Below, one piece after another: positions 27,443 to 61,512 of a DNA stretch of 64,000 nt. This DNA comes from a virus. The notes under the pieces are model-generated. The model was not told the origin of the DNA, did not search any database, and saw nothing but the letters and a program-made list of their open reading frames with translations. Position numbers and translations under genes: made by a program. The stretch lies in the IMG/VR virus record IMGVR_UViG_3300022752_000057, positions 7,103-71,102 of that record; one strand, given 5' to 3'. How positions within the stretch are numbered: position 1 is the first letter of the stretch; every line of letters starts with the position of its first letter.

Positions 27443-28168
27443 ATGAACTCACAAGAACTTCGTGCCCTTCAAGAAGCTTATAATCAAGTTTATGAACTTG
27501 ATGAAACACGCACAGATCCAAGAGGTCGCCCAGCTTCTGGTCCTATGAGTGTCTATGGTGGTCGTGGTCAAGATGCTGGTCCTGGTGGTTCTGGAAATGC
27601 TAATATTGATAGAATGGATGCTGCTCAAAGAAGAGTGAAGCAAACCCAACCTAAAAAAAAGGGAATGGCTGCTGACAGACTCTTTACAAAGTATTCCGCT
27701 AGACAGAAAGGAATGGAACACGGTGGTGAAGAAGGACCAGGACCAAATGCTCCAAGAAGAGGGGGGCGTTCTGGTCGTGGTGCAAATACTGATAGGGGGA
27801 GTGGAAATGCTGCAGCACGTAGAATGAGAGAAGAGTTTGAAGGTGACCTCTTTGATTTCATTCTTGAGCACCTAGTTGCTGAAGGTTATGCTGATACAAA
27901 TGAGGCAGCTCTTGCTATTATGGCGAATATGAGTGAAGAGTGGAGAGAAGAGATTGTTGATGAAGGATATAAAAAACTTCCTGTAGGCAAAATGATAAAC
28001 CAATCTGCAAGGCATAGCAATCCAAAACGAGTTGCAAAAATGGGCAAGGTCGCTGATGCTCATAATCCTGATAGATCTCAAAGAAAAGAGGACGATAATA
28101 GACGAACAGGAGGACGTAAAAGAGATACTGGAAGACCTAGAAGTAATGAACTTCAGGATAATTGGTAA
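27443..28168 (+). CDS. 'MSEEW'-family cassette protein, copy 1
   Basis: ELRALQEAY leader, Arg/Gly cargo, EGYADTNEAALAIMANMSEEW; TATAAATA at 27415. Confidence 0.8.
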   Translation: MNSQELRALQEAYNQVYELDETRTDPRGRPASGPMSVYGGRGQDAGPGGSGNANIDRMDAAQRRVKQTQPKKKGMAADRLFTKYSARQKGMEHGGEEGPGPNAPRRGGRSGRGANTDRGSGNAAARRMREEFEGDLFDFILEHLVAEGYADTNEAALAIMANMSEEWREEIVDEGYKKLPVGKMINQSARHSNPKRVAKMGKVADAHNPDRSQRKEDDNRRTGGRKRDTGRPRSNELQDNW

Positions 28169-46188: not shown

Positions 46189-47121
46189 ATGGATCCTAAA
46201 GAACTGCGTGGTTTAATGGAAGCATATTCAGAAGTTTATGCTCCTGCTGATGAACTTTATGAGGGATATATGAGTCCTGAAAAAAAGATTAAACCATCTC
46301 CAACTCGTGGTGGACGCCCAACTGGAGATATGAGAAAACCATATAATGATACTATGAGAAGACAGGATCAATTGGCAATATCAAAAGGAAAACCATATAA
46401 TGATAAAGTAAAAAAGGACAGTCCAATTCAGTATAAAAGTAATGAAGAGTATGTTGGCGAAGCAAAGAGAGTCCAAATGTATGGACAATCTGGAATGAGT
46501 AGTGATTATGATGAAAGAAACTTAAAAAATAGAGGCGATTTAAGTAAGAGAGATGCTGGATCAATCGCAAGATCACGATTAAAAGGTGAACCATCCGCAG
46601 TAGGTAGAGTAAGAGGATCTTCGCCTCACATTGACGGGCGTCGTATTAATAATGAAGAAGTAGATTTTTACGATATTGTTCTTTCATATCTCCTTGATGA
46701 GGGATATGCGGAAACAGCAGAAGCAGCAGAAGCCATTATGGTGAATATGAGTGAAGAGTGGAGAGATAGTATTCTTGATGAAGCATATGTTGATTATAGA
46801 AGAGGAAAATTACCTAGTGGTAGAACTCCTCAACAAGCAGCAAAAGGAAGAGAAAGTGCTCTAAAAGCAAGACAAAAAAAAGATGAAGTTCTTGGAAAAG
46901 GGAGCAACCCCGAAACCTACCAACAAAGAGGTAGATTGTCGAAGCAAAGTGATACAGTTTCCCAAATGGATCGCGCCACTACTCTTGGTTCAAGATTTCC
47001 TACCCGTGGGAATCCAGGTATTGTAAGAGGTGAACCAAATACTGGTCGTCATCAATCTGCAATTACTAAGAGAGACGCAATCAAAACATCGAAAGAAGCA
47101 GATAAAAAAACTAGAGGTTGA
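46189..47121 (+). CDS. 'MSEEW'-family cassette protein, copy 2
   Basis: ELRGLMEAY leader, basic cargoes, DEGYAETAEAAEAIMVNMSEEW; TATAAATA at 46161. Confidence 0.8.
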   Translation: MDPKELRGLMEAYSEVYAPADELYEGYMSPEKKIKPSPTRGGRPTGDMRKPYNDTMRRQDQLAISKGKPYNDKVKKDSPIQYKSNEEYVGEAKRVQMYGQSGMSSDYDERNLKNRGDLSKRDAGSIARSRLKGEPSAVGRVRGSSPHIDGRRINNEEVDFYDIVLSYLLDEGYAETAEAAEAIMVNMSEEWRDSILDEAYVDYRRGKLPSGRTPQQAAKGRESALKARQKKDEVLGKGSNPETYQQRGRLSKQSDTVSQMDRATTLGSRFPTRGNPGIVRGEPNTGRHQSAITKRDAIKTSKEADKKTRG

Positions 47122-55540: not shown

Positions 55541-57837
55541 GTAACGGAACTAAAGTTAAAAAGCGTGATGGAAGAATTGAGTCTCTTGACCTAGATAAGA
55601 TGCATTTGATGGTAGAAGAGGCATGTAGAGGTCTTGCGGGCGTCTCTGCGAGTCAAGTTGAGATTACCTCAGGTATACAGTTTTACAATGGTATTACAAC
55701 CGAAGAGATTCAGGAGATTTTGATTCGGTCTGCTTCTGATTTGATTGATCTAGATCATCCAAATTATCAATATGTTGCTGCCCGTTTGCTTCTTTTTGCT
55801 ATTCGCAAGCAACTTTATGGGAAGATGAAAGAACTTCCTTCACTTGAACAACACATTTATGCTTGCATTAATGCTGAGGTTTATGATAACGATATTTTTA
55901 ACAAATACTCTAAAGAAGAAATTGAACGTGCTGATTCGTTTCTTGATCATGATCGTGATTATTTGTTTACTTATGCTGGATTGCGTCAAGTTGTTGACAA
56001 ATATCTTGTGCAAGATAGAAGCACTGGGGGTGTTTATGAAACGCCACAGTTTATGTACATAATGATTGCTTTGACCATTTTTGCAGAATATCCTAAAGAA
56101 GTCCGAATGTCATATGTACGGAGGTACTATGACGCAATCTCCAAACACAAAATCAATATTCCAACTCCTATCATGGCAGGAGTTAGAACACCACTTCGTC
56201 AATTTGCAAGTTGCGTTCTTGTTGATGTTGATGACACTCTCGATAGCATCGGCAGTAGTGATTTGGCAATTATGCGATATGTCTCTCAAAGGGCAGGAAT
56301 CGGCATCAACGCAGGCAGAATTCGTGGTATTAACAGCAAAATCAGAGGCGGAGAAGTTGCTCATACTGGGGTTATCCCATTCCTCAAGAAGTTCGAGGCA
56401 ACTGTCAGATGCTGTACACAGAATGGCATCAGAGGTGGAAGCGCAACGGTCCACTTTCCAATCTGGCACCAGGAAATAGAAGATATTCTTGTTCTAAAAA
56501 ATAATAAAGGAACGGAGGACAATCGTGTCAGGAAACTTGATTATAGCATTCAAATCAGTAAAATCTTTTATGAAAGATTCATTCAAGATGCTGAGATCAC
56601 ACTATTCTCCCCACATGATGTCCCTGGACTTTATGATGCTTTCGGAACAGACAAGTTTGACGATCTCTACGTTTCATATGAAAAAGATTCGTCCGTTAAG
56701 AAAAAAACTGTTAAAGCGCAAGAACTCATTCTTAACCTTCTCAAAGAACGTGCAGAAACTGGTCGTATCTATATTATGAATCTTGACCACTGCAATTCTC
56801 ACTCTTCCTTTAAAGACAAAGTTGAGATGAGTAACTTGTGCCAAGAAATTACTCTTCCAACTTATCCAATTCAACATATTGATGACCAAAATGGAGAAAT
56901 TGCACTTTGCATTCTTTCTGCCATTAATGTTGGAAAAGTAAAGTCTGATGAGGAACTTGAGGAACTTTGTGAACTTTCAGTTCGTGGACTTGATGAGTTG
57001 ATTGATTATCAAAAATATCCCGTAGCAGCAGCAGAAATCGCTACCAAGGCACGTCGTTCTCTTGGTATTGGATTCATTGGTCTTGCACACTATTTGGCAA
57101 AACTTGGTTATAATTACGATTCACAACAAGCATGGGATGCTGTTCATGGTCTTTCTGAATCATTCCAATATTTTCTTCTGAAAGCATCTAATCAACTTGC
57201 TAAAGAAAAGGGACATTGTGAATACTTTGGACGTACTAAGTATTCTGATGGAATCCTTCCAATTGATACTTATAAAAAAGATGTAGACGAACTTTCATCA
57301 ATTCCATTGCAACATGATTGGGAAACTCTTAGAACCTCTATCTTGGAACACGGTCTCAGGCACTCAACATTGTCCGCACAGATGCCATCGGAGAGCAGTT
57401 CCGTTGTGTCAAACGCAACCAATGGAATCGAACCACCTAGAGATTACTTGTCCATTAAAAAATCAAAGAAAGGTCCACTTAAGCAAATTGTTCCTCAGTA
57501 CCAAACTCTTAAGAACAATTATACACTTTTGTGGGATATGCCTAGCAATCGTGGTTATATTAATATTGTTGCAGTTATGCAAAAATTCTTCGATCAAGCG
57601 ATTTCTGGAAACTGGTCCTATAATCCAGAAAATTATGACAATAATGAAGTTCCTACTTCAGTGATGGCAAATGACTTTTTGACTACATACAAGTATGGGT
57701 GGAAAACTTCTTACTATCAGAATACCTACGATATTAAAACTGATGAAGTGATTGAAGAAAAGAAACCCAATCTTCAAGATTTACTAAGTGAATTAAGTTC
57801 AGTAGAGGAGGGAGAGTGTGAATCCTGTGCAGTTTAA
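55537..57837 (+). CDS. nrdA: Ribonucleotide reductase class Ia alpha
   Basis: ATP cone VKKRDG, QFASCVL, SNLCQEI, MPSESS, CESCAV. Confidence 0.97.
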   Translation: MSNGTKVKKRDGRIESLDLDKMHLMVEEACRGLAGVSASQVEITSGIQFYNGITTEEIQEILIRSASDLIDLDHPNYQYVAARLLLFAIRKQLYGKMKELPSLEQHIYACINAEVYDNDIFNKYSKEEIERADSFLDHDRDYLFTYAGLRQVVDKYLVQDRSTGGVYETPQFMYIMIALTIFAEYPKEVRMSYVRRYYDAISKHKINIPTPIMAGVRTPLRQFASCVLVDVDDTLDSIGSSDLAIMRYVSQRAGIGINAGRIRGINSKIRGGEVAHTGVIPFLKKFEATVRCCTQNGIRGGSATVHFPIWHQEIEDILVLKNNKGTEDNRVRKLDYSIQISKIFYERFIQDAEITLFSPHDVPGLYDAFGTDKFDDLYVSYEKDSSVKKKTVKAQELILNLLKERAETGRIYIMNLDHCNSHSSFKDKVEMSNLCQEITLPTYPIQHIDDQNGEIALCILSAINVGKVKSDEELEELCELSVRGLDELIDYQKYPVAAAEIATKARRSLGIGFIGLAHYLAKLGYNYDSQQAWDAVHGLSESFQYFLLKASNQLAKEKGHCEYFGRTKYSDGILPIDTYKKDVDELSSIPLQHDWETLRTSILEHGLRHSTLSAQMPSESSSVVSNATNGIEPPRDYLSIKKSKKGPLKQIVPQYQTLKNNYTLLWDMPSNRGYINIVAVMQKFFDQAISGNWSYNPENYDNNEVPTSVMANDFLTTYKYGWKTSYYQNTYDIKTDEVIEEKKPNLQDLLSELSSVEEGECESCAV

Positions 57838-59005
57838 GATTTCTTCCACGGAAGAACAACCACAAATTAAAGGAATGACGGTTTTTAATACTGAGCAAGT
57901 GAATACAAAAAAACAACCGATGTTTTTTGGAAAACCTTTAGGTATTCAACGTTATGATTCATACAAATATCCGATCTTCGATAAACTGACTACCCAACAA
58001 TTAGGATACTTTTGGAGACCCGAAGAGGTGTCTCTTCAAAAGGATCGTGGAGATTATCAAACACTACGTCCAGAGCAGAAACACATTTATACATCTAATT
58101 TAAAGTATCAAATTATGCTTGATTCCGTTCAGGGTCGTGGTCCTGGTATGGCATTTATTCCATATTGCTCACTTCCTGAATTGGAAGCATGTATGGAAGT
58201 ATGGGGATTTATGGAAATGATTCATAGTCGCTCATACACATACATCATTAAAAATGTCTATTCAGATCCATCTGAGGTGTTTGATACTATCATCACAGAT
58301 GAGCGTATTCTGGAGCGTTCTAGAAGCGTTACAGAGTCATATGATGATTTTATTCAATCAGCACAAAATTATGCAACATCTAGCGATTGGATGTATAATC
58401 TTGAGAGATCACAAAACACAAAGGAAACACTCAATGATGTCAAACGAAAACTGTACAGAGCAGTCGCAAACGTTAACATTCTTGAAGGTATTCGGTTCTA
58501 CGTTAGTTTTGCTTGTAGTTTCGCCTTTGGTGAACTTAAGCTTATGGAAGGATCCGCTAAAATCATCAGTCTTATTGCAAGAGATGAAAACCAACATTTA
58601 GCCCTCACTCAAAATATTTTAAATAAGTGGAAAGAGGGTGATGATCCTGAAATGCAAAAAATTGCAAAAGAAGAGGAAGAGTGGGTGTATAAAATGTTTG
58701 ATCGCGCTGTAAATGAAGAAAAAAGATGGGCAGATTACCTGTTCAGAGATGGCAGCATGATCGGACTCAATGATAAATTATTACAACAGTATGTCGAATG
58801 GATTGCAAACCGTAGACTAAAGGCAATCGGACTCAAACCCCAATATGATATTCCAGCAAACAACAATCCACTTCCTTGGACTCAGCACTGGATTTCCTCC
58901 AAAGGTCTCCAGGTGGCACCCCAAGAAACTCAAGTGCAGTCGTATGTGGTTGGTGGAATCAAACAAGATGTCAAAAAGGATACATTCAGTGGGTTTAAGC
59001 TTTAA
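57818..59005 (+). CDS. nrdB: Ribonucleotide reductase class Ia beta
   Basis: FWRPEEV, EMIHSRSY, EGIRFY, RDENQH, VAPQE..SY. Confidence 0.97.
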   Translation: MNPVQFKISSTEEQPQIKGMTVFNTEQVNTKKQPMFFGKPLGIQRYDSYKYPIFDKLTTQQLGYFWRPEEVSLQKDRGDYQTLRPEQKHIYTSNLKYQIMLDSVQGRGPGMAFIPYCSLPELEACMEVWGFMEMIHSRSYTYIIKNVYSDPSEVFDTIITDERILERSRSVTESYDDFIQSAQNYATSSDWMYNLERSQNTKETLNDVKRKLYRAVANVNILEGIRFYVSFACSFAFGELKLMEGSAKIISLIARDENQHLALTQNILNKWKEGDDPEMQKIAKEEEEWVYKMFDRAVNEEKRWADYLFRDGSMIGLNDKLLQQYVEWIANRRLKAIGLKPQYDIPANNNPLPWTQHWISSKGLQVAPQETQVQSYVVGGIKQDVKKDTFSGFKL

Positions 59006-59065
59006 TTGACTTTAAGACTGAAATAGTGTATTATATAAATAATAATAGGTAAGTTCAGTCTTAAA

Positions 59066-59680
59066 ATGAATAACTATATTCTTTACTATTACTTAAGGGA
59101 GGACTTTGGTTCTCCCTTTTATGTTGGTTATGGAAAACCAAGAAGAATTAACTCTAGACACTCTAGAAGAAATGGTGCTGAAATTTTACCACCAAGAGAA
59201 AGAAGGTGGATTGTAAAATCTGGATTGAGTAAAGAGGAAGCAATAGAACTTGAGATAAAACATATAGCACTCTGGAAAAGAGAATGTGATGGTGGAGTTC
59301 TATTAAATCAAAATCTTGGTGGTGAAGGAAAACCTGGAGGACAAAGGACGAAGGGATTTAGTGGAAGAAAACATAGTGAAGAAGCAAAGAAAAGAATAAG
59401 TGAAAAGGTTGCTGGTAAGAATAATCCAAGATATGGAGTTAAATTATCGCAAGAGACAAGAAATAAGATAAGTCAAAATAGAGCACCAAAGTTTGGTAAA
59501 GATAATCCAAACTCTAAAACTTGGAAGATTGTTTCTCCAGAAAATAAAGAGTATATTATTACTGGAGCATTAAAAGAGTTTTGTAAGTCTCAAAATATTT
59601 CATATGCTACTATGCACGCAGCAATTCTTTATGATAGAAAAGGACCCAGAAAAAATGGATGGAGTATTGAGAAAGTTTAG
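59066..59680 (+). CDS. Free-standing GIY-YIG (Seg-like) homing endonuclease with NUMOD3 repeats
   Basis: YYYLRED..FYVGYGK..R, LE..HI, LLN...GGEG, GRKHSEEAKKRISE. Confidence 0.85.
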   Translation: MNNYILYYYLREDFGSPFYVGYGKPRRINSRHSRRNGAEILPPRERRWIVKSGLSKEEAIELEIKHIALWKRECDGGVLLNQNLGGEGKPGGQRTKGFSGRKHSEEAKKRISEKVAGKNNPRYGVKLSQETRNKISQNRAPKFGKDNPNSKTWKIVSPENKEYIITGALKEFCKSQNISYATMHAAILYDRKGPRKNGWSIEKV

Positions 59681-60068
59681 AATATCACTGCCAGAAGATG
59701 AGTGTGTAGTAAAACTTCAGGAGTATTGTAAGTTTTCTCATACTCTTTTAAAAGTTCCTGTAGTACTTAAACCTTTATGTGCTGATGCAAACTGCCACAA
59801 TAATGTAAATCATTATGTGAATACTTATGGCGGAGAAAAAATAAGTGGATATTATCTAATCACAGATGTTGGTGATGACACTTATGGGTGTGCGATATAT
59901 CATAGTATTTGGAAGAATACTTATGGAGACTTGATAGATATAACACCATTTGATGATGGAAGAGAATATAATATGTTCTCTGTACTGGATGCTACAGATT
60001 ATTACTCTGGAGTTTCTTATGATGGGAAGGTTTATAAAATATTAGAACCAGGACTAAATGTTGTTTAG
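59655..60068 (+). CDS. Hypothetical protein
   Basis: NCHNNV..GG...GY..HSIW..LIDITP; overlaps the end of the endonuclease gene. Confidence 0.65.
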   Translation: MDGVLRKFRISLPEDECVVKLQEYCKFSHTLLKVPVVLKPLCADANCHNNVNHYVNTYGGEKISGYYLITDVGDDTYGCAIYHSIWKNTYGDLIDITPFDDGREYNMFSVLDATDYYSGVSYDGKVYKILEPGLNVV

Positions 60069-60097
60069 AATATAAATATTTAAAAAGTAGTTGTAAA

Positions 60098-60604
60098 ATG
60101 GACGCACAAGAATTACGCAATCTTCAAGAAGCATATGTGGAAGTTGCTATGAATGAAGGTTTAAGAGTTTTTCCTAGGGAAAAGATGCAATCTAAGGCAA
60201 CATCTAAAAGATTAAAAGCACTTGGAAGTGAATTAAAATCAAAATTTACAACAGCAAAAGGAACAACTGAGAGAAATATTATAGACGCAAAAAATAAAAA
60301 ACTTAGGTCGCAAGCAGATAAGATGGATAAGGTTGCTCATGAACATACTCCATCGGATTCACGAAATAAAGAAGAAAAAAATAGGGGAGGTTCATATAAT
60401 CCACGTAATCCTATGGGTTCCGATGAATATGCAGAGAGACAATTTGCAAAAAATCGTGCTATGTTGGGAATTCCAGAGCAAGTAGATATTTACGACATCA
60501 TCCTCTCACACCTTCTTGATGAAGGATATGCTGAAACTCAAGAAGCAGCAGAGGCTATTATGGTGAATATGAGTGAAGAGTGGAGAGATAGTATTATTGG
60601 ATAG
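60098..60604 (+). CDS. 'MSEEW'-family cassette protein, copy 3
   Basis: ELRNLQEAY leader, basic cargo, DEGYAETQEAAEAIMVNMSEEW; TATAAATA at 60071. Confidence 0.8.
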   Translation: MDAQELRNLQEAYVEVAMNEGLRVFPREKMQSKATSKRLKALGSELKSKFTTAKGTTERNIIDAKNKKLRSQADKMDKVAHEHTPSDSRNKEEKNRGGSYNPRNPMGSDEYAERQFAKNRAMLGIPEQVDIYDIILSHLLDEGYAETQEAAEAIMVNMSEEWRDSIIG

Positions 60605-60642
60605 ATGTGAAAAAGGACACATTTAGTGGTTTCAAATTGTAA
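60604..60642 (+). pseudogene. Orphan duplicate of the last 12 codons plus stop of nrdB
   Basis: Encodes DVKKDTFSGFKL*, identical in protein to nrdB 58967-59005. Confidence 0.9.
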
Positions 60643-60665
60643 TAATATAAAAAAATCTTATAGAT

Positions 60666-60691
60666 AGAGGAGGTAACACTCCTCTTTTTTT
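60666..60691 (+). terminator. Rho-independent terminator
   Basis: AGAGGAG-GTAACA-CTCCTCT plus T run. Confidence 0.85.
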
Positions 60692-60847
60692 ATGGTTGAC
60701 TATAAAGACATTTTTTCTCTAAAAGCAAAACTTGATAAATTAAAGCACAAATTATATTCGGAACAAAAATCTTGGCAAGAGAAAGAACTTGCTAATAAAT
60801 ATCTCAATCAAGCTATTGACTATGTGAATGAATTGCAGTTATATTAA
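60692..60847 (+). CDS. Small hypothetical protein (51 aa)
   Basis: Manual translation MVDYKDIFSLKAKLDKLKHKLY..ANKYLN.. Confidence 0.5.
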   Translation: MVDYKDIFSLKAKLDKLKHKLYSEQKSWQEKELANKYLNQAIDYVNELQLY

Positions 60848-61274
60848 TGGTTGGAAATATAAAAAACCAATCGGAGAATGTTTTGAATCTGAAGATATAG
60901 GAGATAACTTTGGATTTGTTTATCTCATTACAAATAAGATAAATTCAAAACAGTACATAGGAAGGAAATATTTTTGGTCTTTTAGGACTCCAAAAGGCAA
61001 AAGTAGAAAAGTAAAATCAGAATCTAATTGGAAAGAATATTATGGGTCTTGTCCGGAACTTAAAGAAGACATTGAAAAGTTTGGCAGAGAAAATTTTAGT
61101 CGAGTTATCTTATCATTACATAAAACAAAGGGCAAAACAAACTTTGAGGAAACTAGACAACTTTTCAGACACAATGTCCTCACAGAATCCCTTGACAACG
61201 GAGAACCTGCGTTCTACAATAGCAACATCCTCAACAGGTACTTCCGAAAAGATTATTATGACCGCAACGACTGA
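60828..61274 (+). CDS. GIY-YIG-like nuclease-domain protein
   Basis: GFVYLITN...YIGRK, WKEYYGS, FYNSNI. Confidence 0.75.
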   Translation: MNCSYINGWKYKKPIGECFESEDIGDNFGFVYLITNKINSKQYIGRKYFWSFRTPKGKSRKVKSESNWKEYYGSCPELKEDIEKFGRENFSRVILSLHKTKGKTNFEETRQLFRHNVLTESLDNGEPAFYNSNILNRYFRKDYYDRND

Positions 61275-61431
61275 AGATATTGTTGCTCATGTGAGAACTT
61301 GGTCTCTTGACCGTGCAGCAGATAAAGGTATTTCTAAAGAAGATGCTCGCTCTATTCTTGCTGAGTTTTATGAGTGGATTGAACCAGAAGATGATGAACT
61401 TGAGATCGTTTCTTTGGAACCACAATCTTGA
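61258..61431 (+). CDS. Small acidic hypothetical protein (57 aa)
   Basis: MTATTEDIVAHVRTWSLDRAA..EFYEWI; 3' part of the 61042 ORF. Confidence 0.6.
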   Translation: MTATTEDIVAHVRTWSLDRAADKGISKEDARSILAEFYEWIEPEDDELEIVSLEPQS

Positions 61432-61456
61432 CAAAACCTAAATAAAAACTTATAAT
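61428..61456 (+). promoter_or_regulatory. Consensus sigma70 promoter
   Basis: TTGACA-17 nt-TATAAT. Confidence 0.85.
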
Positions 61457-61512
61457 GTTTTTAACCCACTCATAAAGGTGGGTTTTATATTATGAGATTT
61501 TGATGTGAAATT

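Follow-up and report, generated by a model that had tools for sequence, protein, structure and literature searches.

A free-standing homing-endonuclease cassette with a spare gene end, probably inserted by homing, inside nrdB of a metagenomic virus related to T4-like cyanophages

Introduction

Mobile endonuclease open reading frames (ORFs) that bring a replacement C-terminus for the gene they enter have been described in fungal mitochondria (atp6 of Allomyces macrogynus; atp6, atp9, cox2 and nad3 of Glomus; PMC3630166), where partial C-terminal duplications of atp6 and cob also lie beside GIY-YIG and LAGLIDADG ORFs (PMC6279837). Here we describe an arrangement of this kind in a phage: a cassette inside nrdB, the gene for the class Ia ribonucleotide reductase beta subunit, which holds a free-standing homing endonuclease, carries a spare nrdB end and has probably been inserted by homing. 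The DNA analysed (hereafter the window) is a 64-kb stretch of the 71-kb metagenomic virus record IMGVR_UViG_3300022752_000057, rated 37% complete, and is nearest to the T4-like cyanophages (Kyanoviridae, ~75% nucleotide identity). To our knowledge, the spare-gene-end strategy is known only from fungal mitochondria, and a search of the open-access literature gave no example of a spare-tail arrangement in phage.

Related systems have been described in phages. The free-standing homing endonucleases of T4-like phages, among them the seg and mob genes, spread by "intronless homing" (PMC2988022, PMC2790892) and cleave at sites that lie hundreds to thousands of bp away from the gene encoding them (PMC2988022). 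I-TevI, the enzyme of the T4 td intron, has a bipartite target, cuts within 25 bp of the insertion site and stays bound downstream, which biases co-conversion upstream; its late promoter lies inside a hairpin that occludes the ribosome-binding site, and a hairpin with a late promoter is described as governing the translation of I-TevI, segB and Aeh1 mobE alike (PMC2988022). In Aeromonas phage Aeh1, finally, the free-standing mobE sits inside a still-functional, intronless nrdA that is made as two polypeptides (PMC3653736).

Duplication of the nrdB end around the cassette

The nrdB ORF of the window (57818..59005, + strand, like every feature of this locus described below; 395 aa) matches Pfam PF00268 (Ribonuc_red_sm, 1.2e-57) and aligns over its full length with E. 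coli NrdB chains (1.7e-123). Its final 12 codons and stop (58967..59005, hereafter the live tail) encode DVKKDTFSGFKL, and the identical 12 residues and stop, again DVKKDTFSGFKL, are encoded at 60604..60642 (hereafter the orphan tail), which is untranslated in the nrdB frame. An earlier reading of the window without database searches (hereafter the sequence-only reading) had reported this pair, and its description can be read directly in the sequence: the copies match at 31 of 39 nucleotides (nt), each of the eight differences is synonymous, three genes lie between the copies, and a terminator (hairpin at 60666-60685 followed by a T-run; fold -15.3 kcal/mol, z -3.4) follows the second. A repeat search recovered the same stretch as copy pair D2 (41 nt at 80%). 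Elsewhere in the whole window the 39-mer is matched at no more than 23/39, and 300 shuffles of the 5-kb downstream sequence reached 26/39 at most, so that a match by chance is excluded.

The insert between the copies measures 1598 nt and holds three ORFs: the endonuclease (59066-59680), a second ORF (59631/59655-60068) and the third copy of an MSEEW-family gene (60098-60604). The insertion point lies between nrdB codons -13 and -12 from the stop. NrdB stays complete because the left end of the cassette brings its own copy of the last 12 codons and stop. As in Aeh1, a free-standing endonuclease lies inside a still-functional, intronless ribonucleotide reductase gene; unlike in Aeh1, there is one complete NrdB, because the element carries the missing end (PMC3653736). 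The endonuclease is encoded by a separate ORF that lies in neither an intron nor an intein (nrdB stop at 59003-59005, endonuclease ATG at 59066), and Rfam gave no match at all, intron models included, in 57500-61500 at E up to 1. This stop and the 60-nt spacer that part nrdB from the endonuclease distinguish the locus from Glomus atp6 and nad3, where an in-frame fusion, which is not universal, is described (PMC3630166).

Sporadic presence at one fixed locus

To compare alleles, we analysed the best 80 of 113 relatives from an IMG/VR search with the 204-aa endonuclease (L006-L085, 60-98% identity) and the best 80 among the matches listed in an NrdB search (L086-L165); three contigs were fetched twice (L104 = L046, L109 = L009, L151 = L069). 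In all, 165 nrdB 3' ends were compared, 84 from endonuclease carriers (81 distinct contigs; clade 1 accounts for 70 of the carriers and the shorter clade 2 for 14) and 81 from endonuclease-free loci. The endonuclease starts ~60 nt past the nrdB stop in 80 of the 80 related metagenomic loci, and on a tree of 131 distinct nrdB bodies, from which the last 150 nt were left out, its presence switches at least 22 times. It is thus sporadically present at one fixed locus (the same place in 80/80; 84 carriers vs 81 non-carriers), with a phylogeny uncoupled from that of its host gene. In this it resembles the seg and mob genes (such as mobE between nrdA and nrdB), free-standing nucleases that lie beside a conserved nucleotide-metabolism gene, occur sporadically and have co-converted flanks (PMC2988022); unlike them, the element lies within the coding sequence and supplies a spare gene end.

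The downstream copy as the resident tail

The sequence-only reading had proposed that the incoming DNA supplied a replacement nrdB tail and stranded the resident one downstream. Comparison with relatives lacking the insert bears out the stranding, since it is the orphan, not the live tail, that matches the empty allele. With an orphan tail defined by at most four substitutions in 11 residues plus the stop, 55 of 84 carrier loci have one, vs 1 of 81 endonuclease-free loci, and its homology to nrdB starts at tail nt 1, 2, 4 or 10, whatever the left neighbour. Of 54 carrier loci whose flank extends for 30 nt or more (28 distinct patterns), 53 have an orphan that resembles an endonuclease-free tail more closely than it does the live tail of the same locus; orphan and flank are at least 90% identical to an endonuclease-free allele in 49 (median 95%), vs a median of 72% for the live tail against that same allele. 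In the window, the orphan together with 30 nt of its flank shows 97% identity to L091, an endonuclease-free allele, vs 82% for the live tail; the orphan shares 38 of 39 nt with the tails of the endonuclease-free L091 and L099, and over the first 60 nt the identity to L091, L099 and L090 is 96%, 95% and 93%. At least four unrelated flank types were found, each with orphans of its own type. On these identities, the downstream copy is the resident tail, displaced by 1.6 kb and now standing before its old terminator (60654..60697), which is collinear with the endonuclease-free relatives; a like hairpin lies past the nrdB stop in S-SM2, Bellamy, L091, L095 and L100.

The locus therefore has what defines the fungal mitochondrial case, that is, a host gene completed by the element and a native end downstream that is nearer to insert-free relatives. 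As in those ORFs, the endonuclease ORF lies in the 3' part of a conserved gene to which a foreign C-terminus is joined in frame, and the differences between the native C-terminus and its replacement are largely synonymous (PMC3630166). It differs from them in its setting (a phage genome and nrdB), in the length of the duplicated piece, only 39 nt, in the presence of passenger genes and in a second role of the stranded copy, with which the following gene begins in most relatives.

The imported end of nrdB

In the closest carrier/non-carrier pairs, whose nrdB bodies are 89-95% identical (for example L009/L096, L046/L103 and L026/L088), identity is 93-100% until ~120 nt before the stop, drops to 60-76% at -81..-40 and is 62-90% in the tail. 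This drop indicates that ~80-110 nt of the nrdB 3' end, live tail included, travel with the element; the replacement tail is thus supplied by the incoming DNA, as had been proposed, and in these pairs the 40-70 nt before it are foreign as well. The identity profiles display co-conversion of flanking host sequence, as judged by comparison rather than from a cross. As with I-TevI, the imported tract lies upstream and the downstream resident tail survives (PMC2988022).

Consistently with this, the last 120 nt of nrdB in the window are 90-91% identical to those of carriers L006, L026 and L052 (taken as two 60-nt segments, 91% and 86% for L056 and 81-90% for L008 and L009), vs 63-90%, mostly 75-86%, for endonuclease-free alleles. 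Directly past the live stop, identity to the window leaps to 96-100% in 14 of the 18 carriers compared (86-91% in L048, L058, L062 and L064), even in carriers whose nrdB is 65-85% identical. Moreover, the cassette is less diverged than nrdB (mean 0.87 vs 0.80), and its identity is uncoupled from that of the nrdB body (Spearman 0.13).

A carrier-linked patch in the NrdB beta-tail

Per-position comparison, a peptide table, a pattern search and residue mapping converge on a patch at 58925..58939, where the window reads E-T-Q-V-Q and endonuclease-free alleles read E-T-E-V-E. The sole positions that separate clade-1 carriers from non-carriers are G-to-C changes at -36, -30 and -42 from the insertion point, with C in 89%, 84% and 62% of distinct carrier alleles, respectively, and in none of the 81 non-carriers; these changes turn the codons 30, 36 and 42 nt upstream of the insertion point from Glu to Gln. 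The non-carrier peptide is Q-E-T-E-V-E-S-Y, and Gln replaces its second Glu in 65 of the 70 clade-1 carriers and both the second and the third in 61. The sequence-only reading had pointed to QETQVQSY just upstream of the tail, and this peptide proves to be a carrier-linked signature: its two Gln replacements occur together in 61/70 clade-1 carriers, and C at -36 or -30 in 0/81 endonuclease-free alleles. Its suggestion that the synonymous recoding of the tail could confer cleavage resistance did not survive: no position within the 39-nt tail separates carriers from non-carriers among the 165 nrdB 3' ends, so that the recoding is ruled out as an immunity determinant and reflects lineage divergence.

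An independent search with the Gln-type DNA pattern alone gave 64 contigs, 58 of them with at least 300 nt downstream. In 57 of the 58 an endonuclease-family gene follows, of the window's type in 46; in 11 the gene shares the DNA-binding half, has another GIY-YIG-like N-terminus and is accompanied by a relative of the second ORF; the one contig without a match has only 479 nt downstream. In ~9.4 of 11 independent pairs on the nrdB-body tree the patch tracks the endonuclease, and in none does it go the other way (median p 0.004). Other variants of the patch motif are associated with clade 2 and with one of the C-terminal variants of clade 1.

When NrdB is aligned to the E. coli protein, the three codons correspond to residues 350, 352 and 354, just before Tyr356, and the window retains Glu at the residue equivalent to 350. 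Glu350 is described as positioning the beta-tail, and its substitution disrupts radical transfer (PMC11482829). The patch, 30-42 nt upstream of the insertion point, is a candidate target and immunity region. This distance gives the locus an intron-like geometry, unlike the seg and mob genes with their distant cleavage (PMC2988022).

The I-TevI cleavage motif is CNNNG. No conserved CNNNG at a fixed distance was seen in the per-position nrdB comparison, in which no dedicated search for it was made.

The endonuclease

The endonuclease (59066..59680; 204 aa) combines a probable divergent GIY-YIG domain (~residues 1-95) with NUMOD3 and an I-TevI-type DNA-binding region. Pfam NUMOD3 was matched at residues 100-136 (1.7e-13), and phrog_314, homing endonuclease, was matched as well (6.7e-17); TIGR01453 was matched in the DNA-binding half only (6e-7; 29.7 bits vs a cutoff of 56). 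The sequence-only reading had called it a GIY-YIG gene. No GIY-YIG match was found in Pfam (E up to 10), which names NUMOD3 only, or in NCBIfam; PDB searches with the single sequence and with a 16-sequence profile were empty, and hhalign against the window's own SegE-like protein gave a probability of 0.5%. The call rests instead on relatives. At E up to 0.001, 2075 relatives of the N-terminal 95 residues were found; an alignment of 88 of them shows no variation at Y7, Y19, G21, G23 and E63 and at least 90% conservation of R27 and N81. The profile of the 88 matches PDB chains named "GIY-YIG domain-containing protein" at a marginal E of 0.0018 and UvrC N-terminal domains at 0.12-0.34. From the invariant residues and this profile match, the enzyme is probably a divergent GIY-YIG endonuclease. 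Its neighbours in the Atlas carry GIY-YIG or SegE_GIY-YIG families, which serves as a lead only, and a homologue in Ralstonia phage RSP15 (29% identity, 1e-17) has a sub-threshold LEM-3 GIY-YIG match alone.

The C-terminal DNA-binding region is modular. NUMOD3 is found in 49 of the 88 relatives and NUMOD1, I-HmuI-like, I-TevI DNA-binding or helix-turn-helix (HTH) modules in others; in this endonuclease family at least three variants of the region are interchangeable, and the catalytic half is more than 90% conserved between clades. The enzyme thus resembles I-TevI in joining an N-terminal GIY-YIG module, here probable, to NUMOD3 and HTH-type DNA-binding modules (PMC2988022).

At the same nrdB site, next to a Gln-type motif, L186 (1930-2661) encodes a 243-aa endonuclease whose C-terminal half matches the window enzyme and whose N-terminus is a different GIY-YIG-like domain, and a like arrangement is found in L172, L174, L177, L179, L191, L196, L203, L208, L213 and L217. 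The L186 type points to a swapping of catalytic domains on a fixed DNA-binding module.

The spacer before the endonuclease

The spacer between the nrdB stop and the endonuclease ATG (59006..59065) holds a sigma-70-like promoter site (TTGACT-17-TATTAT, 59006-59034), a late motif and a hairpin. The hairpin arms (59011-59022 and 59054-59065, the 3' arm adjoining the ATG) form a stem of 10 pairs, with compensatory changes at four pairs in 23 sequences, and the spacer fold reaches -17.5 kcal/mol (z -4.0). In its loop lies TATAAATA (59034-59041), which was found in 39 of 41 distinct spacers. A hairpin with the T4-type late motif (TATAAATA) in its loop is the arrangement described for I-TevI, segB and mobE (PMC2988022). 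An I-TevI-style operator copy of the target was sought in the spacer and rejected, the best local alignment score, 7, being reached by 498 of 500 shuffles. The locus thus differs from I-TevI in having no intron (0 Rfam matches), in its TIGR01453 score below cutoff and in the lack of an operator-like target copy in the spacer.

Proposed mechanism and its alternatives

We consider it quite probable that this is a free-standing homing-endonuclease cassette which entered nrdB by homing together with its spare tail. The endonuclease would cut endonuclease-free nrdB in or near conserved beta-tail codons, over a target span like the bipartite site of I-TevI. Repair from the genome of a carrier would then copy ~80-110 nt of the donor's nrdB 3' end, followed by the cassette, and the recipient's tail would pair with the donor's downstream tail copy as right-hand homology, so that it would survive as the orphan. 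Protection of carriers would come from the Glu-to-Gln changes (G to C) that lie 30, 36 and frequently also 42 nt before the insertion point, and the start-region hairpin, whose loop holds a T4-type late promoter motif, would be expected to confine endonuclease synthesis to late infection. The second ORF would ride along, and the MSEEW gene would be lineage-specific cargo. The earlier interpretation, in which a replacement tail was imported, the resident tail was stranded and homing was linked to the spread of cargo, is thus supported in part.

Several observations weigh against homing as the explanation of this anatomy. Besides the marginal profile match and the missing Pfam and NCBIfam GIY-YIG matches given above, the live tail tracks the nrdB body (Spearman 0.77) rather than the cassette (0.23), at a coarse scale, which implies that the tail is not re-imported at every exchange and that ordinary recombination among carriers also shuffles parts. 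nrdB is itself mosaic, so that counts on a single tree are approximate, and the contigs include numerous near-duplicates and the three loci present twice. Two further points concern the boundary. At the very position of the junction, codons -12/-11 of nrdB form an ATG (G ATG T; 58968-58970 and 60605-60607 in the window), which starts the next gene in many relatives, so that selection, not the cut position, may fix the boundary. The same junction occurs in the endonuclease-free L093 (2395-3020), where the live tail is followed by an Asp/Asn beta-hydroxylase-like gene of 191 aa (PF05118, 7e-16) and this gene by an orphan tail; the nrdB of this locus keeps the Glu-type motif.

These last points are the substance of the alternative that fares best, which we nevertheless think unlikely: the duplication would result from gene overlap rather than from homing, since whatever cassette came to lie between the two genes would have to duplicate the 38-nt overlap, and the endonuclease would be one of several passengers of the slot. 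From the hidden ATG an ORF of 40 aa or more runs in another frame; this holds for 30 of the 81 endonuclease-free alleles and for 49 of the 55 carrier orphans. In the former these ORFs are different genes of 43-170 aa whose N-terminus is encoded by the nrdB tail, and a stop usually lies 5-6 codons upstream of the ATG. By these reading frames, in most relatives the duplicated piece is the overlap of nrdB with the gene after it, and there the "orphan" remains functional; the duplicated length equals that overlap, and L093 holds a gene other than the endonuclease between its two tails. In the window, however, both copies read ATG T.. without a long ORF, and the orphan reads ATG TGA; in this flank type the tail has been duplicated nonetheless, and because the ATG is directly followed by TGA the window's orphan is best read as a relic. 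Overlap also leaves unexplained the Gln patch, the imported 80-110 nt and the presence of the same endonuclease family at 84 loci. It is compatible with homing as the driver and concerns mainly the position of the boundary.

Still less probable is an ancient, vertically inherited cassette, with endonuclease-free alleles arising by repeated precise deletions between the tail copies. The 39-nt direct repeats could mediate such a loss, and the live tails do track the nrdB body at a coarse scale. A deletion of this kind, however, would preserve the Gln patch, which none of the 81 endonuclease-free alleles shows; divergence is lower in the cassette than in nrdB (0.87 vs 0.80) and the two are uncorrelated, and orphans match the endonuclease-free tails of the same flank type. 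That the repeat is a chance similarity or an assembly chimera, a concern raised by the incomplete metagenomic source record, is improbable in the extreme, given the 31/39 match vs at most 26 in 300 shuffles, the same architecture at 55 loci from many samples and the exact contigs from other runs that cover parts of the insert.

Beyond the homing account itself, a wider view is possible, although we hold it only tentatively and rather doubt it: the last 12 nrdB codons would form a docking joint shared among T4-like cyanophages, in which the hidden ATG starts the following gene and tail-led cassettes are swapped by recombination, with an endonuclease family specialised on the joint and immunity paid for by Glu-to-Gln changes in the radical-transfer beta-tail. 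With the spare tail on board and the resident tail as homology arm, such a cassette could reach into any phage, whatever the downstream context. In most carriers the Gln changes include the residue equivalent to E. coli E350, and on this view a cost of immunity would explain why no endonuclease-free allele keeps them.

A spare gene end offers a homing endonuclease a third means of residing within an essential coding sequence, in addition to the self-splicing intron and the intein. The ~80 carrier and ~80 non-carrier alleles amount to a natural experiment with a testable target, the three G-to-C positions in the NrdB beta-tail. In genome annotation, a short repeat of a gene end that lies beside an endonuclease gene marks the boundary of an insertion, and genes of unknown function hitch-hike with such elements.

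Passenger genes and surroundings

The sequence-only reading had treated the three inserted genes as one cargo cassette, which holds for the endonuclease and the second ORF, found together in 63 of 80 loci, but not for the occasional MSEEW gene, so that the three genes form no unit. The second ORF (59631..60068, starting at 59631 or 59655; 137-145 aa) follows the endonuclease directly in those 63 loci and is a constant passenger of the clade-1 enzyme. It has 121 homologues, all at least 59% identical and without a Pfam family; profile-library scans gave only phrog_37148 (2.5e-6), a family of unknown function, and among named Atlas clusters the closest score 0.85, no better than chance. The MSEEW gene (60098..60604; 168 aa, ending MSEEWRDSIIG) has paralogues in the window and is present at this place in only a few relatives, namely L007, L008, L012, L026 and L049, where it lies between the second ORF and the orphan; the G of its TAG stop is the first base of the orphan tail. 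Judged by this distribution, it is variable cargo outside the core element. In a phage collection, the cassette was found in no record: the best endonuclease matches there are 26-45% identical and at other loci, the second ORF has no match, and the MSEEW gene is matched in its C-terminal module alone.

Past the terminator lie resident downstream genes that form the old right flank (60692..61274), a 51-aa ORF and a 148-aa SegE_GIY-YIG-domain protein (PF19835, 3.5e-51). A small ORF and the 148-aa gene stand directly after nrdB in S-SM2, SynMITS9220M01, Bellamy, S-SCSM1 and most endonuclease-free loci. The 148-aa protein (60828-61274) is the SegE_GIY-YIG domain alone, without a DNA-binding part; in nearly all relatives its gene has stayed behind nrdB, whether the cassette is present or not, and some records label it "NAD synthetase" or "GIY-YIG endonuclease". 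Elsewhere in the reductase operon, tblastn maps display gaps of ~0.8 kb (up to ~1.8 kb in L081) between nrdA and nrdB, or ~1-kb interruptions in nrdA; the loci with these other insertions are L019, L042-L044, L047, L057, L064, L067, L075 and L081.

Among the short Logan contigs from sequencing runs, none bridged 59005 to 60604. Contigs from RNA libraries lie over 59845-60311 and parts of 60390-60588, a coverage that cannot demonstrate transcription. The runs that hold at least half of the sampled words of 58400-61000 (X1-X4) are lake/freshwater metagenomes from three studies, of which the run with the largest share may be the source sample, and smaller shares of these words occur in several freshwater, marsh, marine and aquaculture runs.

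The MSEEW paralogues of the window (27443-28168, 46189-47121 and 60098-60604) share an N-terminal M-x-x-x-ELR-x-L-x-EAY start and an "...EGYA...MSEEWR" module, with low-complexity sequence between them, and the third copy terminates just past the latter. Both modules of these paralogues reach a very high summed contig depth in freshwater metagenomes.

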